Source of the DNA: Octopus vulgaris
Lineage: Eukaryota
Length of the DNA: 64,000 nucleotides
Direction: 5' to 3'
NCBI GenBank assembly: GCA_951406725.2
Contig: OX597842.1
Span: 24,242,001 to 24,306,000, forward strand
Shown: positions 9,191 through 56,069 of the stretch, in pieces
Layout: every line of letters starts with the position of its first letter
Position numbering within the stretch: the first letter of the stretch is position 1
Position numbers and translations under genes: made by a program
The notes under the pieces: model-generated
Databases searched by the model: none
What the model was told of the DNA's origin: nothing
What the model saw: the letters and a program-made list of their open reading frames with translations, nothing else

Positions 9191-9569
9191 CACAAAAAGA
9201 AAATGACTCTCCCCAGACACAACAGAATATGCTTCAATACACGAATTCATATAAAGAATCTTGCAAACCAAATAGAATTAATATCTGTTTCTTTATTACC
9301 CACAAGGGGCGAAACACGGACGGGACAAACAAGGACAGACTAACGGATTAAGTAGTTTACATTGACTCCAGTGCGTAACTGGTACTTAATTTACCGACCC
9401 CGAAAGGATGAAAGGCAAAGTCGACCTCGGCGGAATTTGAACCCAGAACGTAACGGCGGACGAAATTAATATCGATGTCAGACTAGCAACATTGAATACT
9501 TTCATTATTGTCTGGAGTTCCGAATTTTCCAGGTTCTTCTGCTTTCACTAAAAATAAAATATGTACGAT

Positions 9570-9775
9570 ATCTTACCTGTTATGATAAATAAATCAGTGC
9601 TAAAAGTCAATTAACGCAAACCACACCAAAAAAGCCATTCAGCGGGAAACGTAATTTAAAGAAAGCTCAAAAAATAGACATGGAATATCGACGGAACGAA
9701 CTGAATATCCGGATGTTGTATATATCGTAATACTATACATTTATCGGATGCTAAAACTAAGTTGGTAAATTCTCA
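9570..9775 (-). promoter_or_regulatory. Promoter / exon 1 module (A1)
   Basis: Diverged homologous module; donor CAG|GTAAGA at 9576-9575. Confidence 0.62.
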
Positions 9776-10821
9776 ATGTTTTTTATTGGTATAATTACTT
9801 TTCAAAAATGTGAGTTATGAGGAAAAATCCAAATGATGACAAAACATACAAAACTGACTGCTTATTTTCATATCTATTGGTACTTTTCCACTATCCTGTT
9901 ACCGAACCCTTAAATTACAGGGACGGAACGAAACAAACTCGATTTTGTCAAAGAGGGACGGAGGGAAAACAGGAAGACTCGTGTGTGTTATTTCTACCTG
10001 TATTCGAAAACCATTGTTGCTTTGTTTACATACCTGTATCTTCGTTGTGCAACAGTATAACTACCAAATTAAAAATATGTTCTGGTGTTGCTTTGTTAAA
10101 TGAATCCTACGAGCTGATACTTCAGCCTGGTCGCAGTATAATTATACAGAATTTAAATGAAACACACATATACGCACATGTTTCTGTGTACTTAAACATG
10201 TGCTTGTGTATTTATGTATGTACGTACTTCTCTAGACACGTCCACGTCCATCCATCCATCTTTCCTTCCTACTTTCTCCCTTCCCTCATATTCCTGGTCA
10301 ACTTTGGTATGGTCTCCATAGCTTGATGCCCTCCCTAGCGCTAACAACGTTGCAGTGTGTATAAGGTGTTTGTCTCTTACTACCAACATCAGAGGGGGGC
10401 GCCGAATAACTGTAGGACATGAAGAAATATGGAAAGGGAAAAGTTCTTCAGTTCTATATTTAAGAGATGAGGAATTATTTACATTCTTATTATTATTATT
10501 ATCCAGGTCACTGCCTGGAATCGAACACTTATCCGTCAAATGTAAATAATGTACATAATTCCTCATCTCTTAAATATAGAACTGAAGAACTTTTCCCTTT
10601 CCTTATGTACGTATTCAGATAAGTACGTACATACGTAAATACACAAGCACATGTTTAAGTACACAGATATATGTGCGTATATGTGTGTTTCATTTAAATT
10701 CTGTATAATTATACTGCGACCAGGCTGAAGTATCAGCTCGTAGGTTTCATTTAACAAAGCAACACCAGAACATATTTATCGGTCACTTTTGCTGAAGCGC
10801 TAAGTTATGCTATCTTCCTGG

Positions 10822-14388: not shown

Positions 14389-16169
14389 TATTCTTCTGCA
14401 GTATGCAACACCAAAATATATTTTTCTTTTCTTCTTTATAAATGTCTTTGTAGATTCAAATACTTCTACTGCTATATTTACAGCAAATCTGATCTTCTCG
14501 AATATCTGAAGATAATACAAAGACCTTCACAGATTTTTCCAAATTCAAACAGAATGTAAAATACTGGCAATGAAGAAAACAAACGTTCGTATTAATTCCA
14601 AAGAAATATTACACAGTTATTCACCATAGATTTGTAATAGAAACAGGGTTATATATATTATTTATAATATCTTCCATTAGTCTTCAAATGATGATCAATG
14701 TTCATGATGTATCTGATGTAAAAACTCCTTTATACCACTAACATCTCATATTCTGAAATGACACAGAAACAGTTGAAGATATAGGAAAGACTTGAAAAGC
14801 AGAGATTCAACTATAAAAAATATTACTACATTTTCATAATAATAAACTGTTTATATAAATCTTAACCCGAATAATTAGTCTCTATACACAGACTTTTGTT
14901 CCTTTGCCTTCAGATATTATGTAAAATGTTAAACTACAAAATATTGGACAATAACTTCCTACTATCTTCAGAAATGTGATAAGTCACTGTTGTTTAGTCC
15001 GGAATCATCCCTGGCTGATCAGGTCTATTAATGAAATTAGGTTGTGTTCACGACTTTTAAAATAATAATAATGAAATTACTGTATACAGTGCTCAGGTGC
15101 ACCACAACTTGTCAAAAGTGTGTATAAAGTATATGCAGTAATGTACAAATGTCTGGAAAGTGAACAGTGTATGAGTCAGATACATGCTTGCGTGTGTATG
15201 GAGGGGAGAAAATCAGGTGTAGTGTTGGCGAATCTCAGGAAGCATGGAAAGAAGCCCGTCGTATATATGTGTACATGTATGTTTGTGTGTGTGTTTATGT
15301 GTCTGTGTTTGTCACCCTAACATCGCTGGACAACCGATGCTGGTGTGTTTACGTCCCCGTAACTTAGCGGTTCGGCTAAAGGGACCGAATAGAATAAATC
15401 CTGGGGTCGATTTGCTCGACTGAAAGGTGGTGCTCCAGCATGGCCACAGTCAAATGACTGAAACAAGTAAACAAGAGAACAGAGATAGCTATTAAAGCCA
15501 ATCATTTTGACAAAATAAACAGCAAATAGTGATACGTAGCAAGTTATACCTCTATAATAAAGCGATAGACAGCTTCGAATGGACACAAGTAACAAATGGA
15601 ATGTCTACTGTAATAAAAGAAGACGATCTTACGGTATAAGTACCGGTGTACTTCCGGAAGTACCAGATACATTTCAAAAAAGTGTTTTTTTTTATATATG
15701 GGGAGTTAGGGTTTCTGTGAGGGCTAGGGTTTGTGTTAGGGTTAGGGTATGTGGCGATCCTTCGGTATATGTACACACGTGACTTTGTTTACATTTCTGA
15801 AGATATGAGCTCCAGCGGTGGTGCCCCAGCATGGCCGCGGCTTTCGGGCAAAAACATTTATAAGGATTTTAATGATTTATAACAGAAACCCTAACCCTAA
15901 CACCCCATATATAAAAAAAAACCCACTTTTCTTAAATGTATCCGGTACTTATACCGTAACATCGCCTAAAAGACATAAAAAATTTGGTGCATTTTCATCG
16001 ACATACCAAGTAAAAATTAAGATTAGATTTTCTTGGCATTATTCAAGAAGTTTAACGGAGAATGGAATTAATATCGAAATCAGATTAGCAACATTCAAAA
16101 CTTTCACAATTGTCTGGAGTTTCCAATTAACCAGGGTCATCGGCTTTTACCACAAACAAAACATGTATT

Positions 16170-16375
16170 GTATCTTACCTGTGATGATAAATAAATTAGT
16201 GTTTAATATGAATTAACGTTAATTACGGAAAGGATCGATCTGGCGGGAAATATAATTTAAAGGCACTTTAGAAAAATCGACACGGAACGTCAACGAAACG
16301 AACTAATCTCTAAATATTGTATCCATCCTATAACTACGCATTTGTCGGATGCTAAAACTGAAGTGGTAAATTTTT
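16170..16375 (-). promoter_or_regulatory. Promoter / exon 1 module (B1)
   Basis: Reverse-complement copy of the B2 module; donor GT at 16178-16177. Confidence 0.7.
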
Positions 16376-17079
16376 AATGGTTTTTATTGCTATAATTCCG
16401 TTTACGAAATGTGAATTATAATGAAAAAAACCCGAATAATGTCAAAAAATACAAAAGTATATGCTGACTACTTATTTTCAGGTTTTTTGCTACTCTTACG
16501 ATCTCCTCTTTAAACCTCTAGTATCGTTCTTCGTTTATTTCTTTTTAAGGTTAAGGTGAGAAACCCGTGGGTTGTTTTCTAACCAATACCCAAGAAATTA
16601 TTTTTCTCTTAGCTTTATTGAGAAAATCCTACATTTTGTAAGATATTTGTTGTTTTTTATTTCTGCAATTTCAACTAATAAATGACGTCTATTGAGGTGA
16701 AAACATTCTGTGCCGTTTGAATATGTACCTCGTTTAAGAAACAGATTGGATTTATTTACATTTCTGAAGAAAAAAAAGATAACCTTTCCTCAACTCCTAA
16801 CCCTAAAACATATTGAAATGCAATAGATCGATACTAGGGTCATAATTATGGGTGACAATTTCATATGATGCCGCTAGAAAAAACTGCCGTTCAAACGGAA
16901 AACATTCGATGGGAGTAAGACACACGTGTCTGTTCCCCACACCCACCACTATCTGACAAGTCGTGTTGCTTTCTTTGACATTGTGGTTCGGTACGCGGAG
17001 GACGTAAAAGTAGCAATAAAAATGTCAGCTTTGTATCATTTGTTATTATTTGGATTTTTTCTTACAATTCACATTTTCA

Positions 17080-17270
17080 AAAATTTACCACTTTACTTTT
17101 AGCATCAGACAAAAGTGTTATTAATACGGGAAGCACAACAACCGGATTCTTAATTCGTTTCGTTGACGTTCCGTGTCGGCTTTTCGATGTGTCTTTTTCG
17201 CTAGATCGCTTATTTGTGTAATTAAAAATATTATAAAACACCGACTAATATATTATAAGAGTTAAGATGT
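17080..17270 (+). promoter_or_regulatory. Promoter / exon 1 module (C1), donor altered
   Basis: Same module, but the donor position reads GAGTTAAGA. Lies head-to-head with the B1 module. Confidence 0.6.
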
Positions 17271-19604
17271 AACACATATTTTCTTTTTAGTAAAAGCCTA
17301 TGTATCTGGCTAATTGGAAACAGCAGGCAGTTTTGAAAGTTTTAAATACTGCTTGTCTGAAATCGATATTAATTCTATTGTCCAGTAAACTTCGTAAATT
17401 ATGCCTAGAAAATCTGGATTTTACTTGTGGCCATGAAAAAGCACCAGATTTTTAATTACAATTATTTTAATAAATACTTCATTATTTTAGTAGATATTTC
17501 AGTGTTTTCATTTCAAGTTTTAATTTGGAAAACTGACAGTTCATTCTATTAATAAACTGGTATAATTTTAGTAAAAAATAAAATTAAGAAGTGATTTTGT
17601 TATGGTTATCTGGATTGCTATAACCTTTAGAATGATAACTATCCAAACCGATTTTGGCCATTTTCTGAACCCGAAACCATGTGGTTGGTATACAAGCTAC
17701 TTACCACACAGCCACTCCTGCGTATTGATGTTTTTTAAAAATATTTTTCTCCTATTATATTTTATGGAATGACTGGCAGAGATACCCGGCGTTGCTCAGT
17801 ATTGAAATGTCATAATTTGTGTGTATATATATATTACAATTATGTTGAAATAGGTGATATAGGAAAGTGCAGCATTGATGACAAAAAATTTGTGGAGTAA
17901 AAGATTGGCTAATTGGACTAAGCGACTTGTCATTTGTCCGAGTATTCCTTGCCCTAACCAGTCGTGGAAAATTGGGGGTGGAGGGTATGTGATTTTTTAA
18001 TGCACCGAAAAACTCAGTGGATATGTTTTCCTTTCTGGCAATTGGTCCTGCATCTAACATGACCCATCGTCTGAGGTTTTGACACCTTTGGGTTTATTGT
18101 CCTCCATCACTCATGAAGTAAATTTTGAGGACCTGTGACACATAAAAGCACCAACCGACCGTGGCCATTTGCCAGCCTCCTCTGGCTGGTGGCACGTAAA
18201 AAGCACCCACTATACTCACGGAGTGGTTGGCATTAGGAAGTGCATCCAGCTGTAGAAACACTGCCAGATCAGACTGGGGCCTGGTGCAGCCTCGTGGTTT
18301 CCCAGATCCTGGTTGAACCATTCAACCCATGCTAGCATGGAAAGCGGACATTAAACGATGATGATGAAGATGTGGTTGGTTGTTCATTTGTGGGTAACAG
18401 GGAACCATTGAGGTGACAGACTTGCCCTTCGACTGTGAATGTCAGTGTAAATCCATGTTCAACTATCTCCTTAGATGCACCAAACAATGTCATTTGTGAT
18501 GCAGGATTGTCTGATATTGTTCAGGAAATCCTTTGACTGGATGGAAGTACCTTCCAGAAGAGGTTGAGAAGGAGCTGGTAGTGCTGGCAATATTACCTTA
18601 CTGCCTGGGCATTGCATGCCATTAGTTTCATTTGGAAATTTTAAAGCTTTACAGAAACAACGATTTGAGTTTAGCACACTAATTTGGACAAAATTATCAT
18701 TTTCATAAAAATGGGATGGATTATATCTGAAAGCAGCTCCAGGATTTGTGAAGAACGCATTTATACATAGTCTGTTTGTGAGAGCTATTCTATTGGACCA
18801 CTGTCTAATCATTAAAATGTTTTAATGGCTAAGCATTAAATGCTGCAGCATGTGTTTGCTGATCTTGCAAAAGTCTCATCTCCCTTCTGTATTGAGACTC
18901 CATCTGACGTGCTGCGGCTTGCCTTTGCTCATCTTGAGAAAGTCCCATCTTGCTTCTGTCTTAAGAAGCAAGATGGAAATATTGTCCAATAATATGTAAT
19001 TTAATGTTTTACATAATATCTGAAGGAAGAGGAGCTGAGGTCTGTGTATATGTAGACATTACACAAGGTTGTATCATATGATTTTAATAACAGAATATAT
19101 TTCAAAGACAACTTAAAGGATTATATCCACAGTTTATGATTATGAAAATGTAATTATATTTTCTATTGTTAAATCTTTGCTTTTTAAGTCTTTCCTATAT
19201 CTTCTACTGTTTCTGTGTCATTTCAGAATATGAGATGTTAGTGGTATAAAGGAGTTTTTACATCAGATACATCAGGAATATTGATCATCACTTGAAGACT
19301 AATGGAAGATGTTATAAATAATACATATAACCACGTTTATATAATTTATCTATGGTGAAGAACTGTGAAAAATTCCATCTGAATTAATAGCAACATTTGT
19401 TTCCATCATTGCCTGGAATATTTGCTGAAGTATTTCCCATTCAGTCTGAACTTGGAAAAATCTGCAAAGGTGTTTCTATTACCTTTAGATATTGACAAAG
19501 ACCAGACTTGTGGAAAATATAACTAGAGAAGTATTTGAATCAACAAAGGAATATATAAGAAGAACAGGAAAATATATTTTGTGCTTGTATACTATAGAAC
19601 AATA

Positions 19605-28261: not shown

Positions 28262-28859
28262 GGGTTGTTCCTTTAAATCGTAAGGTGATTTGCCCACAAG
28301 ATCTCTCGATCGAACTTCCATGGCTAGAAACTTCACTCGGAAATTCTGTTCCTACAAACTGGAGTATTTTTCGATCTTCCACAGGAGTGCTTCCCTTGTC
28401 CTCCTTTTAAACGGCATTCTTTGTATCAATATATAGGACAGGTACCACTTTTAGACGCAGAAAATGATTTTAGCTCAATAGAGGGCATAGGATTGGTTAA
28501 AATTCGAAAAATTAAACTACGTTAAAATTACAAATTACAATTTTCACAAGAAAGCCAAGAGAAAAAGATGTTTTATTTTGACACATTCTACCAGTATACG
28601 GAGTTTAAAACTTTTTAGTTACCTAGAAATTATGTTAAAAAACTGTCGTTCAAAAGGAAAAGATCCGTTGTTTCTCTTTCGTACGCTCGTGTTGTTGTTG
28701 TTATAGTTGTCTGAGTGAGGAATGTTGTTGTTGCCACCAACACCGCTATTGTTTACATTAATTTGAAATTTGCCAGCAAAATGGCAATGTACTATAAGTC
28801 GTTACCTTGGCCCAATTCACATTTTCAAAAGTTTATTATAGTTATAAAAAAACATTAAC

Positions 28860-29056
28860 AGTTTACCACCTTAATTTCAGCATCAGACAAAAGTGAGTAA
28901 ATACGAAGCGCACAACAACCGGATTGTTAGTTCGTTTCGTTGACGTTCCGTGTCGGCTTTTCTATGTGTCTTCCAGTAATATTTCCCGCTCGTTCGAGTG
29001 TGTAATTAAAAATATTTCTTATAAAATAGCGACTAAATTATCATCAGAGGTAAGTT
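28860..29056 (+). promoter_or_regulatory. Promoter / exon 1 module (D1)
   Basis: Module motif present; donor GAG|GTAAGT at 29050. Confidence 0.68.
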
Positions 29057-29582
29057 GTAATACATATTTTCTTTTTAGTAAAAGCCTATGTATCTGGCTA
29101 ATTGGAAAATCCAGACAGTATTGATAGTTTTAAATAATACTAGTCTGAAATCGATATTAATTCTATTGTCCAGTAAAGCACCTGGTTTTTAATTTCAATT
29201 ATTTTGGTAGATAATCCATTTGCTGGTTGTGTCCATTCAAAGCTGTTTGTTGTTTTATCACAGATGTATCATTTGCTAAACATCTGTATTTGCTGTTTAT
29301 TCTGTCAAAATGATACACGTTAATAATTCTGTCCATTTCAGCTTCTCAGAATAAATAATCTGCAACATCATAAAACATCAATAGCTAACTGAAACATGTG
29401 GCCAGTGATAGTACTATGATAAAAAGCAGATACAGCCTTTTGTAGACAGAATCAGCAAATGTCATCAACTGGCGATGGGTACTACTCTAGAAGAGCGGTC
29501 CCGGTGTGCGCACTCGCGCTTGTTAGTCGTGACTAGTAGATCCTTACTTTGTGTTTTTGTTTTATTTAATTAGTTAAAAAAG

Positions 29583-33307: not shown

Positions 33308-34574
33308 AACTGTAATATCTGCAGTAAATCATTCTAAGTCAGATCTTTTCCTTTTGAACGGCAGTTTTTAACAAAATTTCTAGTGAACTAAACACTTTAA
33401 AACTTTGTATACTGGTAGAATGTATCAAAATAAAACATTTTTTTCTCTTGGCTTTCTTGAGAAAATTGTAATTTATTTATTGAACGTAGTTTAATTTTTT
33501 GAATTTTAACCAATCGTATGCCCTCTATTGAGCTAAAATCATTTGCTGCATCTAAAACTGAGCCCTAACCCTAAATTTTGCCTCTTGTTTTTTTTGTTTT
33601 ATTGTTATCCTTAAATTAATTTAAGGATAACAATTAAGTAAAAAAAAACGAAAGCAAAAACTCAACCAATACAAAACGGTTAGGGTTAGGGGTGCGGGAA
33701 GGGTATCTTCTTTTCTTCGCAAATGTAAATAAACCCAATAAACATATTCATACAGCACAGTTTGATTTGACTCCAAATGGACGTATTTGATTGGTAAAAA
33801 TTGCCGAAATGCTCGATTTTAAAGTGGAAATGGGTTGATCGTAATCAGAATTCAATGTTGCATCGATAAACCAAAATTGAAAACGATCTAAGCAGAATTA
33901 ATGATGGGGAGGGATCATTTTGCAAATAAGAAAGACTATACCAAAACATTTTAAATCTAGTAGCTATACCATCCGACTCTTTTGCTGCAGAACAAGGATC
34001 TTTTCTGTTTGACCGGCAGTTTTTTACAATAGTTTCCACGTAACTAAACGCTTTTAAACTTCGTATACTGGTAGAATGTGTTTATAAAACATCTTTTTCT
34101 CTTGGCTTTATTGAGAAAATTCTGTAGTTTGTAAGATATTTGTTGGTTTTTTTTTCTGCAATTTCAACCAATCAGTGACATCTATTGAGGTGAAAACATT
34201 CTGTGCCGTATGAATATGTCCCTCGTTTAAGAAATAGATTGGGTTTATTTACGTTTCTGAAGAAAAAAAGATACTCCTAACCCTAACCCTAAAACAGATT
34301 GAAATGCAATAGATCGATACTAGGGTCATAATTGTGGGTGACAATTTCATATGATACCGCTAGAAAAAGCTGCCGTTCAAACGGAAAAGATCCGATGGGA
34401 GTAAGACACGCGTGTCTGTGCCCCACACCCACCACTATCTGTCAAGTCGTGTTGCTTTCTTTGACATTGTGGTTCGGTACGCGGAGGACGTAAAAGTAGC
34501 AATAAAAATGTCAGCTTCTAGCTTTGTATCATTTGTTATTATTTGCACTTTTTCTTACAATTCACATTTTCAAA

Positions 34575-34765
34575 AATTTACCACTTTACTTTTAGCATCA
34601 GACAAAAGTGTTATTAATACGGGAAGCACAATAACCGGATTCTTAATTCGTTTCGTAGACGTTCCGTGTCGGCTTTTCGATGTGTCTTTTTCGCTAGATC
34701 GCTTATTTGTGTAATTAAAAGTATTATAAAACACCGACTAATATATTATAAGAGTTAAGATGAAA
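34575..34765 (+). promoter_or_regulatory. Orphan C-type promoter module
   Basis: Copy of the 17080-17270 module. Its coding exon is deleted at the junction near 35002. Confidence 0.6.
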
Positions 34766-36483
34766 CACATATTTTCTTTTTAGTAAAAGCCTATGTATCT
34801 GTCTAATTGGAAACACCAGGCAGTTTTGAAAGTTTTAAATACTGCTTGTCTGAAATCGATATTAATTCTATTGTCCAGTAAACTTCGTAAATTATGCCTA
34901 GAAAATCTGGATTTTACTTGTGGCCACGAAAAAGCACCAGATTTTTAATTACAATTATTTTAATAAATACTTCATTATTTTAGTAGATATTTCAGTGTTT
35001 TCCGAGCATGATGTCCTTCTCCAGGGATTTTCTCCGCATAATATGCCAATCTATGCTTGGTTATCCCAGCTTCTAACGACATTTTCGGCCTTTTCTGCTT
35101 AAGAACTTCTCCATTGGTGAGCCTCGCTGTCCACGGAATCCGCAATTTGTTGATATTATTTAATTAAATATCAAGATACAGTGAATGGGAGACTTTTACA
35201 TTTAAATCGCCCGAAATTTCATCTAGTTGTAACTTCTCTCCGTTAATTAATCCTTCAAATTAGTGCTGAAAGAAGAAATAACGTTTGATTTCATGGTAGG
35301 GGTGAAACATCAGTGATATTAAAATGGCTCAGAGTTACTTCCCTTAGCATTAAACAGAAAGAAATGCCTTCAAACTTTATATTTCGTCTTTATTCCTCTT
35401 CGACCAGATCCAGCTGGAATAGCTCTCTGCTGTCTCTGATATTGCCTCTAGAGCATTGCTCATGTTCTTCCCAGAGACTGAGGGTTGTTGGATCTTTTCC
35501 TTTTGAACGGCACTTTGTAACATAATTTCTAGTTAACTAAACACTTTTAAACTTCGTATACTGGTAGAATGTGTTTATAAAACATCTTTTTCTCTTGGCT
35601 TTATTGAGAAAATTTTATAGTTTGTAACATATTTCGTCTTTAATTTCGAGCATTTCGGCAATTTTAACCAATCGCTGACCTCCATTGACGTAAGCAACAT
35701 TCCGTGCTGCATGAATATGTCCCTCGTTTAAGAAACAGTTTGGATGTTTTATAAACACTTTCTACCAGTATACGAAGTTTAGAAGTGTTTAGTTAACCAG
35801 AAATTGTCTGCTGTTCAAAAGGAAAATATCCGGGTTGTTTCTTTAAATTGTGAGGTGATTTGCCCACAAGATCTCTCGATCGAACTTCCATGGCTAGAAA
35901 CTTCACTCGGAAATTCTGTTCCTCCAACCTGACGTATTTTTCAATCTTCCACACGAGTGCTTCCCTTGTCCTCCTTTCAAAGCGCATTCTTTGTATCAAT
36001 ATATAGGGCAGGTACCACTTTTAGAAGCAGAAAATGATTTTAGCTCAATAGAGGGCATAGGATTGGTTAAAATTTGAAAAATTAAACTACGTTAAAATTA
36101 CAAATTACAATTTTCACAAGAAAGCCAAGAGAAAAAGATGTTTTATAAACACATTCTACCAGTATACGAAGTTTAAAACTTTTTAGTTACCTAGAAATTA
36201 TGTTAAAAAACTGCCGTTCAAAAGGAAAAGATCCGAATGTTGTTGTTCCCACCAACACCGCTATTGTTTACATTAATTTGAAATTTGCCAGCAAAATCTC
36301 ATAAAATGGCAATGTTCTATAAGTTGTACAAGCTTATATGCTTTATATGAAAATAAAGAAGTTAAATATGTTACGTGACTCCGGCGTAACCGTAACGGCC
36401 AAAAACGGGTGGTGTGGCTATTTGTTACATTGGCCCAATTCACATTTTCAAAAATTTATTATAGTTATAAAAAAATATTAACA

Positions 36484-36680
36484 GTTTACCACCTTAATTT
36501 CAGCATCAGACAAAAGTGAGTAAATACGAAGCGCACAACAACCGGATTGTTAGTTCGTTTCGTTGACTTTCCGTGTCGGCTTTTCTATGTGTCTTCCTGT
36601 AATATTTCCCGCTCGTTCGAGTGTTGTAATTAAAAATATTTCTTATAAAACAGCGACTAAATTATCATCAGAGGTAAGTT
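36484..36680 (+). promoter_or_regulatory. Promoter / exon 1 module (D2)
   Basis: Near-copy of the D1 module; donor GAG|GTAAGT at 36674. Confidence 0.68.
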
Positions 36681-38633
36681 GTAATACATATTTTCTTTTT
36701 AGTAAAAACCTATGTATCTGGCTAATTGGAAAATCCAGACAGTATTGATAGTTTTAAATAATACTAGTCTGAAATCAATATTAATTCTATTGTCCAGTAA
36801 AGCACCTGGTTTTTAATTTCAATTATTTTGGTAGATAATCCATTTGCTGGTTGTGTCCATTCAAAGCTGTTTGTTGTTTTATCACAGATGTATCATTTGC
36901 TAAACATCTGTATTTGCTGTTTATTCTGTCAAAATGATACACGTTAATAATTCTGTCCATTTCAGCTTCTCAGAATAAATAATCTGCAACATCATAAAAC
37001 ATCAATAGCTAACTGAAACATGTGGCCAGTGATAGCACTATGATAAAAAGCAGATACAGCCTTTTGTAGACAGAATCGGCAAATGTCATAAACTGGCGAT
37101 GGGTACTACTCTAGAAGAGCGGTCCCGGTGTGCGCACTCGCGCTTGTTAGTCGTGACTAGTCGATCCTTACCTTGTGTTTTTGTTTTATTTCCTTAGTTT
37201 AAGGAAAAAGAAATTATTTACGAAAGAATATGAAAACTAAAAGAATATATCACACACATTTTATTTGATTTGTGTAAAAAAATCATATACATTGTTCTAA
37301 GAAATAATTTATTTACTTTCTTTAAAAAATTCTTTTATTTTATTCTATAAAATCAACTCATTTGCATACGTGCAAGTCGTTATAGGATCGGCTACTTACG
37401 ACTATCTAGCGTGTACCGGGTCCAGTCTCCGCTAGTAGTACCTGTGTTTTTGTGTTTTATTTACTTTGTTTTAAAAAGAAAGGCGATCTTACGGTATAAG
37501 TACCGGTGTACTGCCGGAAGTACTGGATACATTTCAAAAAAGTGTTTTTTTTATAGGGTTTCTGTTATCTTCAGAAATGTAAACAAAGTCACGTGTGTAC
37601 CTATACCGAAGGATCGCCATTCTGTCCTGGCTCTACTCTTCATACGTCAATTCACAGAACACTTTCTCTAAATTAGTGACCACACCTTCAACATATGTGA
37701 GTGCAGTTGACATTCTAGAAATAAACAATCACATCATTGAAACCTCAAAGCCATAAGATAATGCATGATTAATTCAAAACAATTTGAGTGAAAAAGAATT
37801 ACATTTAACAGAATAATCTGAACACTAAAGGGATAATGTTTTACATAATATCTGAAGGAAGAGGAACTGAAGTCCATCTATATGTAGACATTACACAAGG
37901 TTGTATCATATAATTTTAATAACAAAATAAATTTCAAAGACCACACCCTTTTGTTACTAACCCGGCCAAAACGGGCTCTGGTTCTGTGGTAAAATGTCTT
38001 GTTTTCATAAGTTTTGAATTAAAATCTTCCACCAAACCTTAGTTACAATTTATGTTCCTAACACTAGTTGAATGATAACTAAGTTCTTTATTATATTTAA
38101 AATAATTGAAAGAAACACACTGAATCTCAAAAGAAATATGGTAACAAAAGGGTTACCATATTATAAATTACCATAAATAAATTTCAAAGACAAATTAAAG
38201 GATTATATCCACAGTTTATCATTTTGAAGATGTAGTTATATTTTTTTATAGTTGAATCTCTGCTTTTTAAGTCTTTCCTATATCTTCTGTTTCTGTGTCA
38301 TTTCAGGAGGTGAAATGTTAGTGATACTTCATGAATATTGATCATCTAATGGAAGATGTTATAAATATTTGACATAACTCTGTTTATACGATTTGTCTAT
38401 GGTGGAAAACTGTGAAATATTTCTTCTGAATTAATGGCAACATTTGTTTCCATCATTGCCTGGAATATTTGCTAAAGTATTTCACATTCTGTTTGGAGCG
38501 GGAGATATCTGCAAAGGTGTTTGTATCATCTTCAGATTTTGATGAAGATCAGAACTGCTGGAAATATAAGCAATAGAAATATATAAAAAAGGAAGCAAAA
38601 TTATATTTTGTGCTTGTATACTATAGAACAATA

Positions 38634-48974: not shown

Positions 48975-49941
48975 GGCATCAACCACAGTGAAAATTTTGT
49001 TGATCCGACAAATGCGTCAGTGAGCACACAAACGATAGAGAGATTGTGGGGGTCAGTTAAGAGATCAGTTGTTCGCCCAGGCATTCGTGCCTGTTACTTA
49101 AAGCAATACCTCTCCAAGTTCCTATTCATGGAAAGCATCAAACCTGCTGCCAAGAGAAAACACGTATTCTTATTGGCAGCAGCAAGTCTTTATCCTGGCC
49201 CGAGATAATTTTTTCCTCCAACCCATCTCATTTCTTTATCATCACTGTCGATGGACCACTCAAAGAGGTATGTATACATTATCATTTTCGTAACATAATT
49301 TCTGTAGTATTTCAAGATGTTTCTGACACGTATTTTGATTCATATGGCGGAGATCCAACATTTCTTCACTTTTTCCAGAATTTCTTCTCTTTTTTTTTTT
49401 TTTTGCGAAATATGTACAAAAATACGGAATTTATGATGTGTGAGTGTGTGTTCTTGATACTCGTTTAGAACAAGTAGTTTTACACCAATTACACTATTTT
49501 TTCTTAGTTTAAAGGCCGTGGACTGAAGATGTGAAATTTCCGAAGCCTCTCCCCCACCCCCTTTCGCGAGTGCGTATTTTTTTTTATCATATTCGTTTAG
49601 AGCAAGTTGTTTTACACCTATTACGCTATTTTTGTTTTTGTGCCCGGGTCAGACGGTTTCGGAAATTCCCGATGCAAATTTTCCCAGGCTTCTCCCCCAC
49701 CCCTCTTTCGCGAGGGCGCATTTTTTTTGTCATATTCGTTTAGAGCAAGTTGTTTTACACATATTACACTATTTTTTTTTGTTTTGGTGCCCGGGTCAGC
49801 CCCTCAGACGCTTTCGGAAATTCCCGATGTGAATTTTCCGAGGCCTCTCCCCCACTCCCCTTTCGCGTGCGCGCATTTTTTTTTCATATTCGTTCATATT
49901 TTTTCTTGTTTCTTTGAATGGTGTAACGCTTTAGTTTAACC
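48975..49941 (+). mobile_element. Merlin/ISXO2-like transposon remnant
   Basis: INHSENFVDP..TQTIERLW transposase C-terminal motif. Three subterminal repeats of about 130-140 bp (49460-49895). TIR ends ..TTTAGTTTAACC at 49941. Confidence 0.75.
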
Positions 49942-50625
49942 GTTAATTCTATTCGCCAATAAATGTCTTTAATTAAGCCAAGAAAATTTGGATTTTACTT
50001 GGCATGGCCATGAAAAAGCACCGAATTTTTAGCTTTTTTTATTACAGTAGATATTCCATTTGCTGACTGTGTCGATTCAAAGCCGTCTATTGATTTATCA
50101 TAGAGGTATTATTTGCTAAACATCTATATTTGCTGTTCCTGTCGAAATAATCCACGTTAATTATGTCTGATTTTTGCTCCTGTGAATAATCTGCAATCTA
50201 ATAAAACAGAAATAGCTGACTGCAACATGAGGCCAGTGGTACCGCGATGATAAAACAAGATACACCTTTTCGTAGACAGAATCAGCAAATGGCTTAAACT
50301 TGAAAAGAAACGAATACACAAACGTATTTATGATCCAGACCTTCAACACATGTGAATGCAGAATTTCTTTAAAAGATTTACATTATTAATAAGGTTACAG
50401 AAGGAAAAGTCGTGGTGGGTTGGTGTTTAAATTATAGTTGTGTTTATGTTTGATGTATTCTAAAAGTCAGGACAGTCGGGAACACAAGCGAATTTCATTA
50501 AGAGGTCTGCTCAATCAGGGATGACCTTGGGCTAAACAACAGTGACTTGCCACGTTTCTGAAGATAGAATATTATTGTCCACCGTTTTGTAGTTTAACAT
50601 TTTCCATAATATCTGAAGGTGGAGG

Positions 50626-50744
50626 GGTTAAACTAAAGCGTTACACCATTCAAAGAAACAAAAAAAAAAAAATGTGTGTAATAGGTGTAAAACAACCCAG
50701 TGTGGTTGGCCATGGATGGCTTCTAAATTTCCTTTAGTTTAACC
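50626..50744. mobile_element. Mini-element with the same TIR (GGTTAAACTAAAG)
   Basis: The left 35 bp is the reverse complement of 49907-49941; the right end is CTTTAGTTTAACC. Confidence 0.7.
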
Positions 50745-50852
50745 GAATTAACATCGATGTCAAACTAGCAACTTTTAAAACTTTTTACTTTTGTTTGGAG
50801 TTTCGAATTAGCCAGGTTAATCGGCTTCTGCTAAAAAATAAAATATATATTA

Positions 50853-51068
50853 CATCTTACCTGTTTTGATAAGTAGATCATATGTTACGATAATTAGATT
50901 AATGTGAATTAATGTTAATTACACAAAAGAGCAATTAACGGGAATATAGTATAAAGACACTCTAAAAGTCGGCATGGAAAGTCAACGAAACGAACTAAAA
51001 ATCTTGATGTTGTATACCTCGTATTACTACACATTTGTCGGATGATAAAACTGAGTTGGTAAATTTTT
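50853..51068 (-). promoter_or_regulatory. Promoter / exon 1 module (A2)
   Basis: Homologous module; donor CAG|GTAAGA at 50860-50859. Confidence 0.65.
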
Positions 51069-51472
51069 AATGTTTTATTATTGCTATAATTACTACTTAA
51101 AATTTTGAATTGTAAGAAAAAATCCAAATGATGGCAAAAGATACAAAACTAAAGCTTATTTTCCAGTCGATTGCTACTTTTACGCTGTTCTGTCGTCGAA
51201 CCCGTAAGTTACAGGGACGGAAAGAAACGAATCCAGCTTAGCAGAGTGATGTTGGATGAGGATAGGGGGAAACATGCATGCATCAGTGTTCGAAAACCAT
51301 TTTTGGTTTGTTTATATTCCAGTAACTTAGTTGTGCAATGGAAGAGGGCGGGGGTAAAGAATACGCACACCACCCGTTTACGGTGTAAGCCTAACCCATG
51401 CGTCGCAGGAGGCGGAAGAGGTCAAGCAGGACGCACGTGTGGTCATCGACGAAGCGACAGTTCGAGCAGAGA

Positions 51473-53645
51473 TGAGAAATCGCACGTTGACGTCGGTTGT
51501 GTTTTTTTTACGCTCGTGAAATTTGGTAAAAAAGAACAAAAAGTGAGAGGGAAAATTGTTGTTGTGGAATTTTGTTTCGTTTGTTGATGCGGTTTCGCGT
51601 TACACTGGTTCTACGCGTTGCACTGTTTCTGTTCGGGCGGCCGTTTTCGGTCTGTCAGACGGAGGGATATGGACGACCACTCCCTAGTGGCGGAGTCGGA
51701 GGAAGAATGGATATTTGAGACCTTGTCGGAGACATCGACCTCTGAAGACGAGCAAATCGGTGATGTAAATAATGTGGAGATAAAAAACAGGAAAACGTAC
51801 GCAGGAGTTGCAAAAAAGAAGACGGCACAGGAAAAGGAAATAAACCTAGAAAAATTGCCAGGTTTCTAGAGGTATATGAGGAAGGACAGCGGTGAGGTGG
51901 AACTAACACCACCACCAAAGAGAAAAGAATGGTTGGAGAAAAGGACCATCATATACAGGGTATTCGCAAGCGGAACGAAAAAGATAGAAGAGTGAATTAT
52001 AATGAAAAAACCCCGAATAATGGCAAAAAATACAAAAGTATATGCTGACTACTTATTTTCAGGTTTTTTGCTACTCTTACGATCTCCTCTTATGGAGTGG
52101 AGAAATGAGGCGCTAAGAAGAACGGAAGAGGAAATCGAATTTCTGTCGAGAGGTTCAAAATATGGTACTGTAGTAGTACAGTTCAAAAGTGAGAAGGCAG
52201 CAAGGAAGATGGCGGCGAAGGCGGTGAAATCCGAGAAGGTAATACTTTTGCCTACGTATTTAAATAGAAAAATCACAAGAGTAAGGGTCGAGGGAATAGC
52301 CCCAAACGTTGAAGCCGAGTGGATTGTGGCGGCTATAATTAGCGGCCACGAGGATGAAGTGGACATCCTCCATGCCTCGGTTAAGACCGAGGGCTGGAGA
52401 GGCGTGACAGTGGAACTAAATGTGCAGGCAGAGAACGATGTACTGGTGGACCTAACAGAAAACATCAGATTGGGAGACGTGATCATGAGAGTGTGGGTGG
52501 AGGGCAGGGCGCCCAGGTGCTATAAGTGTGGCCTGAGGGGTCACATAAGAGCCTACTGCCCTCCCCCACAAAAAGAAACAGTGATCCAGGAAGAGGAGGA
52601 AACGGAGCCGGAAAAAGTTGAAGCGGAAGAACCTGAGGAGGAGAAGGAAATCCAAACTGAGTGGGAAGACGTACGGAAAAAAAGAAAAAGAAAGAAAGTG
52701 AACTTTATTGAATCCCAATCCACCCCAACACCACCCGCACCCTCTGAGCCCCATCCTTCCCCTGCAAACAAAGAGCCCACCCATTCCCCACCTACAAGAA
52801 AACCTAAAAACGCAGACACACAGATGATACAAGAGCCCAAGCCCCATACTTTATGTTTTATAAAAAAGGAAGACAATGTGAAGCCGACAAGTATCTTTGG
52901 TGAAAAATCATGGTATGAGGGAGAAGATGGAAGTTACATGGCGATGAAAGGTGAAATAATGGACGCAAGGAAGATTTTGTCGGAAAAAAAGGGTGTAGAA
53001 GCGATTGAGGTGGAATTTTCGGATGAGAAGATAAAAGAGTGTGAAGAGATATTTGAGATAGTATTAGGAAAGGAGGGGCTTTTGATTGGAGATGATAGGT
53101 GACGAAGGGTTGTGAAGGACAGGTAAGTGATGCTGGCGGATGGGGCCGTTAGCATCGCTTTCATATTACCATTTTTTCATTTAAAATTCATTTTTCATAA
53201 TATTAATTATAATGTTCTATGTCCCCTCTCCGTCGCCCCTTGTGGGTAATAAAAAATCAGAGATGAGAAATCGCACGTTGACGTCGGTTGTGTTTTTTTT
53301 ATACGCTCGTGAAATTTGGTAAAAAAGAACAAAAAGTGAGTGGGAAAATTGTTGTTGTTGTGGAATTTTGTACGTTTGTTGATGCGGTTTCGCGTTACAC
53401 TGGTTCTACGCGTTGCACTGTTTCTGTTCGGGCGGCCGTTTTCGGTCTGTCAGACAGAGGGAGATGGACGACCACTCCCTAGTGGAGGAGTCGGAGGAAG
53501 AATGGATATTTGAGACCTTGTCGGAGACATCGACCTCTGAAGACGAGCAAATCATATTATTTTCATATTATTAATTATAATGTTCTATGTCCCCAATGTT
53601 TTGTAATGTCCCCTCTGCATCTTCCCTTGTGGGTAATAAAAAAAT
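51473..53645 (+). mobile_element. ORF1/Gag-only retroelement with A-ORF-B-A-B repeat layout
   Basis: Direct repeats of about 290 bp (51473-51758 and 53264-53552). Two 3' tails ending CCCTTGTGGGTAATAAAAAA. CAGAGA at all three junctions. No RT. Confidence 0.8.
51669..53102 (+). pseudogene. L1/Tx1-like ORF1 (Gag-like) protein with CCHC zinc knuckle
   Basis: One frame from ATG 51669: acidic N-terminus, TYAGVAK, knuckle CYKCGLRGHIRAYC, basic KKRKRKK. It is interrupted only by TAG 51867-51869 and a 99-100 bp insertion; 52002-53102 remains open. Confidence 0.8.
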
Positions 53646-54089
53646 CAGAGACGAGGAAGCGACAGGACGTGTCAAATTCGTAAGAGACCTCGGATCTTCG
53701 CCGAGGTAAGGCCTTTTGTATTTCTTCCTCCCGTTGCTTCTCCTTCTGTTGTCCTCTTCATCCATCACACTACACATACATACTTGTCCTTCTCATCAAG
53801 CAAACTCTCTTGAATTTGGATTTAATGAAAATAATATTGAATAAGACTTTGCGAGTCAGCTTTACATAATTTCTTGGGTATTGGTTAGAAAACAACCCAC
53901 GGGTTTCTCACCTTAACCTTAAAAAGAAATAAACGAAGAACGACACTACAGGTTTAAAGAGGAGATCGTAAGAGTAGCAAAAAACCTGAAAATAAGTAGT
54001 CAGCATATACTTTTGTATTTTTTGCCATTATTCGGGGTTTTTTCATTATAATTCACATTTCGAAAACGTAATTATAGCAATAAAAACCA

Positions 54090-54295
54090 TTAAAAATTTA
54101 CCACTTCAGTTTTAGCATCCGACAAATGCGTAGTAATAGGACGGATACAATATTCAGATTTCAGTTCGTTTCGTTGACGTTCCGTGTCGATTTTTCTAAA
54201 GTGCCTTTAAATTATATTTCCCGCCAGATTGATGCTTTCTGTAATTAACGTTAATTCATAGTAAACACTAATTTATTTATCATCACAGGTAAGAT
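54090..54295 (+). promoter_or_regulatory. Putative ZNF promoter / non-coding exon 1 module (B2)
   Basis: Contains TTTACCAC..TTAGCATCCGACAAA..GTTCGTTTCGTTGACGTTCCGTGTCG and a strong donor CAG|GTAAGA at 54289. The module recurs upstream of every ZNF exon in the gene's orientation. Confidence 0.7.
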
Positions 54296-54500
54296 ACAAT
54301 ACATGTTTTGTTTGTGGTAAAAGCCGATGACCCTGGTTAATTGGAAACTCCAGACAATTGTGAAAGTTTTGCATGTTGCTAATCTGATTTCGATATTAAT
54401 TCCATTCTCCGTTAAACTTCTTGGATAATGCCAAGAAAATCTAATCTTAATTTTTACTTGGTATGTCGATGAAAAAGCACCAAATTTTTGATGTCTTTTA

Positions 54501-54888
54501 GGCGATGTTACGGTATAAGTACCGGATACATTTAAAAAAAAGTGGGGTTTTCTTTATATATGGAGGGTTAGGGTTAGGGTTTCTGTTAGGGGTGGGAGAA
54601 AAGGGTTTCTGTTATAAATCATTAAAATCCTTAAAAATGTTAAGCCCGAAGGCCGCGGCCATGGTGGGGCATCACCGCTGGAACTCATATCTTCAGAGAT
54701 GTAAACAAAGTCACGTGTGTACATATACCGAAGGATCGCCACATACCCTAACCCTAACACAAACCCTAGCCCTCACAGAAACCCTAACTTTAACCCTCAC
54801 CCTAACTCCCCATATATAAAAATAACACTTTTTTGAATTGTATCTGGTACTTCCGAAAGTACACCGGTACTTATACCGTAAGATCGCC
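54501..54888. mobile_element. GGCGAT-ended MITE with TTAGGG-like repeats
   Basis: TIR GGCGAT(C/G)TTACGGTATAAGTACCGG; TSD (G/T)TCTTTTA. Copy at 15622-15966; short relatives at 30893-31048 and 37482-37618. Confidence 0.8.
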
Positions 54889-56069
54889 TTCTTTTATTAC
54901 AGTAGACATTCCATTTGTTACTTGTGTCCATTCGAAGCTGTCTATCGCTTTATTATAGAGGTATAACTTGCTACGTATCACTATTTGCTGTTTATTTTGT
55001 CAAAATGATTGGCTTTAATAGTTATCTCTATTCTCTCTTTTACTTGTTTCAGTCATTTGACTGTGGCCATGCTAGAGCACCACCTTTTAGTCGAGCAAAT
55101 CGACCCCAGGACTTATTCTATTCGGTCTGTTTTGACGAACCACTAGGTTATGGGGACGTAAACACAGACACATAAACATACATATACACATATATACGAC
55201 GGGCTTCTTTCCATGCTTCCTCAGATTCGCCAACACTACACCTGATTTTCTCCCCTCCATACACACGCAAACATGTATCTGACTCATACACTGTTCGCTT
55301 TCCAGACATTTGTACATTACTGCATATACTTTATACGCACTTTAGACAAGTTGTGGTGCACCTGAGCACTGTATACAGTAATTTCATTATTGTTATTTTA
55401 AAAGTCGTGAACACAACCTAATTTCATTAATAGACCTGTTCAGCCAGGGATGATTCCGGGCTAAACAACAGTGACTTATCACATTTCTGAAGATAGTAGG
55501 AAGTTATTGTCCAATATTTTGTAGTTTAACATTTTACGTAATATCTGAAGGCAAAGGAACAGAAGTCTGTGTATAGAGACTAATTATTCGGGTTAAGGTT
55601 TATATAAACAGTTTATTATTATGAAAATGTAGTAATATTTTTTATAGTTGAATCTCTGCTTTTCAAGTCTTTCCTATATCTTCTACTGTTTCTGTGTCAT
55701 TTCAGAATATGAGATGTTAGTGGTATAAAGGAGTTTTTACATCAGATACATCATGAATAGTAATCATCATTTGAAGACTAATGGAAGATATTATAAATAA
55801 TATATATAACCCTGTTTCTATTACAAATCTATGGTGAATAACTGTGAAATATTTCTTTGGAATTAATACGAACGTTTGTTTTCTTCATTGCCAGTATTTT
55901 ACATTCTGTTTGAATTTGGAAAAATCTGTGAAGGTCTTTGTATTATCTTCAGATATTCGAGAAGATCAGATTTGCTGTATATATAGCAGTAGAAGTATTT
56001 GAATCAACAAAGACATTTATAAAGAAGAAAAGAAAAATATATTTTGAGGTCGTATACTGTAGAACCATA

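Follow-up and report, generated by a model that had tools for sequence, protein, structure and literature searches.

Organization of the locus and of the host element

The window analysed, i.e. the whole stretch of 64,000 nt from Octopus vulgaris (contig OX597842.1, forward strand, position 1 being its first letter), is occupied by a C2H2 zinc-finger (ZNF) gene cluster. A conserved ZNF upstream module was found there in eight copies; it has an initiator-like motif as well as a splice donor (AG-GTAAG), the latter retained in six of the eight and lost near 17.3 kb and 34.8 kb. These conserved motifs make it a reasonable inference that the module, which also holds the template described below, is a likely promoter, the label given to it in the initial annotation.

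9451-9900, 16065-16500, 17003-17375, 28813-29163, 34489-34868, 36436-36787, 50745-51184 and 53967-54402: conserved ZNF upstream module, eight copies

Flanked by two divergent modules of this kind, A2 on the minus strand and B2 on the plus strand, lies a 2.2-kb element that contains an open reading frame (ORF) coding for a zinc knuckle protein.

51467-53651, plus strand: element, in the order head 1, ORF, tail 1, head 2, tail 2, with CAGAGA at three of three junctions (repeat comparison)
51467-51758, plus strand: element head, copy 1, starting with CAGAGA and containing ORF codons 1-30
51669-53102, plus strand: disrupted ORF1p-like gene, with a conserved N-terminal module, two predicted RRM-like domains, a CCHC knuckle and a low-complexity tail
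53125-53160, plus strand: strong stem-loop in the element tail, 15-bp stem (z -4.1; none of 200 shuffles as stable)
53192-53263, plus strand: element tail, copy 1, ending in AATAAAAAAT followed by CAGAGA
53258-53651, plus strand: second, short copy, made of head copy 2 and tail copy 2 and ending in CAGAGA

Head copy 2 (53258-53553) is 96% identical to head copy 1, and the two tail copies are five substitutions and a 19-nt indel apart. The element ends in a short A-run, and CAGAGA stands at all three junctions. Contigs of four public runs (X1, X17, X18 and X20; three genome-sized and one small) were compared over positions 51200-53250. The run search listed 24 runs, 20 of which contain half of the words or more, in 10 studies; none of the 24 is recorded as RNA, and the RNA nature of X1 is a guess only. 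The join of head 2 to tail 2 seen in the short copy is also present in X20, and the tail from 53115 onward is joined to other upstream sequences in contigs of all four runs. In other copies of the element the frame is open through position 51867 and through the insert site described below. Of 150 relatives of the predicted protein, one has an end that resembles the sequence to which the shared tail is joined, an uninformative comparison.

Within the window no further copy of the element was found. No second long frame occurs in 51300-53900 and the tail follows directly after the ORF, hence there is no ORF2 (endonuclease plus reverse transcriptase) in this region. A search of 50500-54500 against Rfam gave no match at E 0.5, and thus no ribozyme hint of a Penelope-like element.

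The tail stem-loop overlaps a perfect-looking splice donor at 53123 (region 53110-53160). Another donor-like site, GAG-GTAAGG at 53706 (53700-53712), lies between the element end and the B2 module and is absent from the B1 paralogue; it could splice read-through transcripts of the element into ZNF gene B2. Just upstream of the element, 51338-51406 is a short repeat of very high depth, and contigs related to it join telomere-like TTAGGG/CCCTAA letters. A similar CCCTAA-rich inverted repeat is found at 54500-54895.

Predicted product of the ORF

Among the relatives of the knuckle ORF a protein of Octopus sinensis is the closest, with 50% identity over 238 aa. All the named relatives are octopod (nine names among ten looked up, seven of them with an organism, Octopus or Argonauta, plus P0001).

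52518-52559, plus strand: CCHC zinc knuckle, C-x2-C-x4-H-x4-C (weak Pfam match, E 0.064, below the cut-off)

P0005 and P0012 are among the relatives that pass the Pfam cut-off for the knuckle. The predicted model of a further relative, P0004, has pLDDT above 85 for residues 71-290 and places two RRM-like domains before the knuckle. When this model was searched with Foldseek, all 33 rows listed were RRM proteins (best E 7.6e-5, with a low whole-chain TM), and VIA-align gave the La RRM with Z 9.4, rmsd 2.4 and 81 aligned residues; no capsid fold was present among the matches listed by either search. Neighbours in the ESM Atlas, to be taken as leads only, were CCHC and ZCCHC3-type clusters, with ZCCHC3 RBD clusters at 0.89-0.90. 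The name Gag, under which the ORF had first been described, does not suit a protein whose relatives fold as RRM-like domains; judging from the predicted models, the product resembles a type I LINE ORF1p more than a retroviral-type Gag. In one relative, P0052, the knuckle domain is part of a predicted Helitron/PIF1 helicase protein, which probably reflects a nested insertion that gene prediction has fused with it.

Comparison with known retrotransposons

Type I ORF1 proteins are described as combining RRM with CCHC, and in animals other than mammals they are associated with the Tx1 clade (PMC5203782); for O. vulgaris, the recently active L1-Tx1 families on record number 13 (PMC13282606). The octopus ORF is comparable with the type I non-LTR ORF1p of the Tx1/L1 clade, as presented in PMC5203782, and with ZCCHC3-like proteins in having predicted RRM-like domains before a CCHC knuckle, the RRM being recognized through the P0004 model and not through Pfam. 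It differs from the type I systems in having one knuckle and named relatives that are exclusively octopod, and in the absence from 51300-53900 of the ORF2 that marks an autonomous L1/Tx1 LINE.

An ORF1-only organization ending in a short tail that contains an A-run is also reported for the non-autonomous LINE derivative HAL1 (half-L1; PMC5753468). However, HAL1 is described as mammalian and derived from L1. A further likeness is to the PAT/Ngaro tyrosine-recombinase retrotransposons as outlined in PMC4157794, which share the A1-B1-A2-B2 repeat order, a zinc finger in the first ORF and a hexamer at three junctions; in contrast, the octopus element has neither a reverse transcriptase/RNase H nor a recombinase ORF, and its head repeat includes coding sequence. 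Nor are its paired repeats identical (heads at 96%, tails differing), although they may have decayed since insertion. The repeat order would be explained equally well if a complete copy and then one with an internal deletion had inserted at a preferred site. The element is treated here as a putative ORF1-only LINE derivative, with a non-autonomous PAT/Ngaro-like element as the alternative.

An LTR retrotransposon is contradicted by the lack of any frame the size of pol and by a direct repeat that includes the start of the ORF. The region before the knuckle is predicted to be RRM-like, though it may belong to a family outside the matches listed. Troyka LTR elements were set aside as well, their termini and structure being different as portrayed in PMC12440569. 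Among the literature titles listed, none concerned this element family, which may be contained in the repeat library supplementing PMC13282606. Lying between divergent ZNF promoters, restricted to ORF1 and with its frame open elsewhere, the element may merit more attention than the insert it carries.

An inverted copy of ZNF upstream sequence within the ORF

51992-52091, plus strand: exact inverted match, six native and 94 copied bases
53957-54056, minus strand: nearest template with full identity, within the conserved module upstream of ZNF gene B2
16411-16510, plus strand: paralogous template upstream of ZNF gene B1, 98/100 identical

As the initial annotation stated, 51992-52091 is an inverted copy of 53957-54056: the two agree at 100 of 100 bases (E 7e-47 in a search of the window), and a spacer of 1,865 nt separates the arms. 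Among the 26 exact inverted matches within 6 kb found in the window it is the longest, the runner-up measuring 69 nt. The assignment to the B2 and not the B1 version was also borne out: the B1-side sequence matches at only 98 of 100 bases, with mismatches at 52011 and 52023. The initiator-like motif near 54161 follows the template at about 105-205 nt, and the splice donor at 54289 follows it at about 230-330 nt. An intronic template, an idea derived from the donor-like site at 53706, was discarded, the conserved donor of the module sitting at 54289 instead.

Template-type contigs reached depths of 818 and 490, against about 300-480 for the element and its flank, depth being no measure of copy number; the high values could reflect collapsed B1 and B2 sequences or an amplified unit. 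Further B2-type templates may exist outside the window.

Junctions and insert-free forms

51992-51997, plus strand: GTGAAT microhomology, common to insert-free copies and to the template end
51998-52091, plus strand: 94-nt copied segment, the final T of which could equally be native

The insert had been expected to be missing from other copies of the element, and insert-free forms were indeed found in all four runs. In X18 (depth 110) and X20 (depth 249) position 51990 is joined to 52091 with TGGTGAA between; in X1 (depth 5), 51992 is joined to 52091 with GTGAA between; X17 has the same loose end at the insert site in five contigs. The X18 and X20 insert-free contigs are identical to the window at all 122 bases left of the junction, and in X18 their depth, 331, is similar to the 467 of the flank contigs (a hint only); the insert-free contigs may stem from elsewhere than this very locus.

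In every insert-free form GTGAAT precedes the ATG at 52092, and the same hexamer makes up the first six bases of the 100-nt match; together with the preceding GAA, target and template agree at 9 of 11 bases. At the right junction microhomology amounts to at most 1 nt, a T shared with the left junction. The spacing between two anchor motifs was compared in the 15 homologues, out of 150 relatives, that have both: it is 34 residues in 11 of the 15, and 32 in the window if the two GTGAAT codons are left out. From the insert-free joints and the homologue spacing it follows that GTGAAT is native. The reading by which a clean removal of 99 bp would restore KKIEE-MEWRNE was therefore abandoned, since 11 of the 15 homologues call for two extra residues. 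What was inserted is a templated stretch of 94 nt at a microhomology of 6 nt, with the loss of one G, as judged against the X1 insert-free form, for a net gain of 93 nt. The hexamer GTGAAT is rare nearby (six occurrences per 12,000 strand positions), therefore a coincidental microhomology is unlikely.

The insert-bearing form was recovered in X1, where a 108-nt contig of depth 6.7, identical to 51963-52070, spans the left junction, missing G included, with 35 bases to the left of the microhomology end and 73 to the right. No contig bridging the right junction was present among the 32 pieces listed, beside which there are 3,597 more, and the insert junction was not among the listed contigs of X17, X18 and X20 (76-80% of two of these runs was read, and rare forms drop out). 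The assembly chimera that the initial annotation had named as a refutation is thus countered at the left junction. An artefact of this kind, formed by fold-back during assembly or library preparation, would account for the perfect identity to a nearby inverted template as well as for the unbridged right junction, and several window letters (51279, 51867 and others nearby) are absent from the compared contigs of all four runs, being either private variants or base errors. Against it stands the X1 contig with its missing G; X1 may come from the same animal, yet its library is separate from any listed DNA run. We consider such a chimera very improbable.

Age of the insertion

At the divergence between B1 and B2, 3.3-4.0% of sites, the chance of finding no difference in 94 nt is 0.02-0.04. 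On this sequence comparison the insertion is probably later than the B1/B2 duplication, in line with the order first suggested. The two diagnostic bases on which that suggestion was based are weak dating evidence when taken alone, the B2 state at one of them being shared by the A2 module. The absence of differences over 94 nt and the existence of near-identical insert-free copies point to a recent event, and the insertion is likely to be recent.

Proposed mechanism and known parallels

An insertion templated from about 2 kb away had been proposed, and it is confirmed with an inverted, B2-type ZNF upstream source. With good confidence, we interpret the 94 nt as an inverted copy of nearby ZNF upstream sequence, made in a single microhomology-mediated repair or template-switch event, which brings a TGA that breaks the ORF and likely rescues nothing. 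The insertion is likely an ordinary DNA-repair scar.

The event may have started from a break or a stalled strand beside GTGAAT, with about 100 nt then being synthesised on a B2-type template. Rejoining would have occurred via GTGAAT, whose annealing together with the preceding GAA, at 9 of 11 bases, would loop out the missing G. Without that G, GAA and GTGAAT come into register with the template, which suggests imperfect annealing. In the favoured geometry the resected right-hand end would fold back onto the template 1.9 kb away, because the side and the strand are those of the template, and the new ATTCAC end would then anneal to the left end in a snap-back, polymerase-theta-like manner. The right junction, with its single nucleotide of microhomology at most, is weak as a primer, a point against this proposal. 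A fork template switch (MMBIR/FoSTeS) would be an alternative route to the same product; primed at GTGAAT it fits equally, and it accounts better for the absent right-hand primer. Replication-type template switching and polymerase theta end joining both yield the same product.

Nearby, inverted and microhomology-flanked insertions are given as the signature of MMB-TI, of which 103 and 99 germline calls were reported in two human genomes, 10 and 11 of them classical (PMC8421209). The octopus insertion resembles the classical class, as characterized there, in its near and inverted template, in the microhomology or microhomeology at a junction and in being present in some genomes only: the insert is absent from the ancestral form, the inverted template is close by and the left junction carries microhomology. 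It differs in occurring in a cephalopod, within a transposon ORF, and with at most 1 nt of microhomology on the right, and the class is assigned by signature and not by pathway. Snap-back SD-MMEJ by polymerase theta, as set out in PMC2943611, likewise gives an inverted repeat made of a net insertion and its flanking microhomology; however, the templates described in that source lie within about 20 bp, whereas here 94 nt were copied from 1.9 kb away with no clear primer repeat. The mutation type is therefore a known one, and with both junction forms visible its microhomology can be read directly. The insertion opens no long-standing question.

Capture at the RNA or cDNA level, by a reverse transcriptase jump to an antisense transcript of the ZNF promoter, or gene conversion from an insert-bearing copy of the element, would suit a retrotransposon-like host with many relatives, and the insert has the sense that a promoter-upstream antisense RNA of B2 would have. 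We regard these origins as unlikely: the nearest identical template is in cis at a distance of 1.9 kb, which speaks for a local event at the DNA level, no other copy of the element is found in the window, and the match of the X18 and X20 insert-free contigs left of the junction, with the similar depths in X18 as a hint only, also speaks against them. On balance the templated insertion is real, likely recent, disruptive and microhomology-mediated, and of a known kind.

Effect of the insertion on the coding sequence

51867-51869, plus strand: TAG, found in the window only (contigs of four runs compared); private variant or base error
51876-51878, plus strand: native in-frame ATG just past the TAG
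51942-51965, plus strand: conserved first strand of the predicted RRM1, RTIIYRVF; upstream of the insert and missing from the chimeric ORF
51993-51995, plus strand: TGA created at the left junction, ending the ORF after 108 codons where 51867 reads CAG
52002-53102, plus strand: chimeric ORF of 366 aa, 30 insert-encoded residues and then native sequence from the Met at 52092
52092-52094, plus strand: native in-frame ATG directly after the insert

The stop and the following ATG attributed to the insert by the initial annotation are both present, TGA at 51993-51995 and ATG at 52002, and the 366-aa chimeric frame is indeed open from 52002 to 53102. This TGA interrupts the first of the predicted RRMs once its initial strand is complete. 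The TAG at 51867, on the contrary, is not the older lesion it had been taken for, as this position reads C (CAG) at full depth in all four runs, the insert-bearing X1 included. In X1, positions 51822-51990 are contained in one contig that continues into the insert junction, and from this contig layout we infer that insert-bearing X1 molecules carry C at 51867. The TAG is either private, or younger, or an error.

It had further been suggested that the insert rescues an N-truncated knuckle protein, with translation reinitiating at ATG 52002 to give a 366-aa product in which the insert peptide replaces the first RRM strand. Some features would fit: ATG 52002 is in frame with an A at -3, the 30 codons supplied are open, the left junction is present in X1, guessed to be RNA, and AlphaFold predicts a strand for insert residues 12-19 in the slot of the lost one. 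That strand has pLDDT of about 67, with 51 in the next block, against 93-96 for the native strand of the intact relative P0004, and it is weak, the input alignment having already placed these residues in those columns. An open in-frame ATG occurs in 22.8% of 127,812 random 94-nt stretches of the window, and an open stretch of 28 codons or more in 1.6% of random 94-nt pieces.

For a family profile, 19 relatives covering the N-terminus were picked by hand, and the native part was read through with X. Against this profile, the native upstream part adds 43 bits (111.6 versus 68.2), whereas the insert peptide adds nothing (66.8, a score equalled or exceeded by 200 of 200 shuffles). The chimeric product has lost the conserved module ahead of RRM1, modelled with pLDDT 87-96 in P0004. 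With no TAG in any of the four runs there was nothing to restore, and the insert itself brings a stop. Even with an earlier TAG, a longer frame that includes the first RRM strand would already have been open from ATG 51876, and this frame is closed by the TGA of the insert; the native ATG at 52092 tells against the claim too, as do the insert-free copies. Reinitiation is reported to be best after an early stop and with about 78 nt before the restart (PMC6614817); here 108 codons precede the stop and 6 nt separate it from ATG 52002, unlike that optimum.

A functional rescue or new protein is thus very unlikely on our assessment. Equally slight is the probability we give to the model-based scenario in which 90 nt of antisense promoter have become a translated N-terminus filling the RRM-strand slot, with a folded truncated knuckle protein made by reinitiation from a still polymorphic allele; such a folded chimeric protein would possibly be dominant-negative on the element family and, if really made and folded, would offer a rare one-step snapshot of non-coding DNA turning into structural coding sequence. 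In DNA this rich in A/T, ATG 52002 probably arose by chance, likely as a by-product of the insertion, and the insert allele likely means that one copy of an ORF1-only, LINE-like element was lost neutrally.

A neighbouring inversion

Upstream of the A2 coding exon, a segment of about 680 bp (49942-50625) is inverted with respect to the paralogous B2 region. This segment is flanked by a 36-nt exact inverted duplicate, 49906-49941 and 50626-50661, which extends to 43 nt at 98%. By this sequence pattern, 49906-50661 is read as an in-place inversion, 1.3 kb from the insertion. The insertion and this second inversion at such a short distance hint at active template switching in cephalopod zinc-finger clusters.
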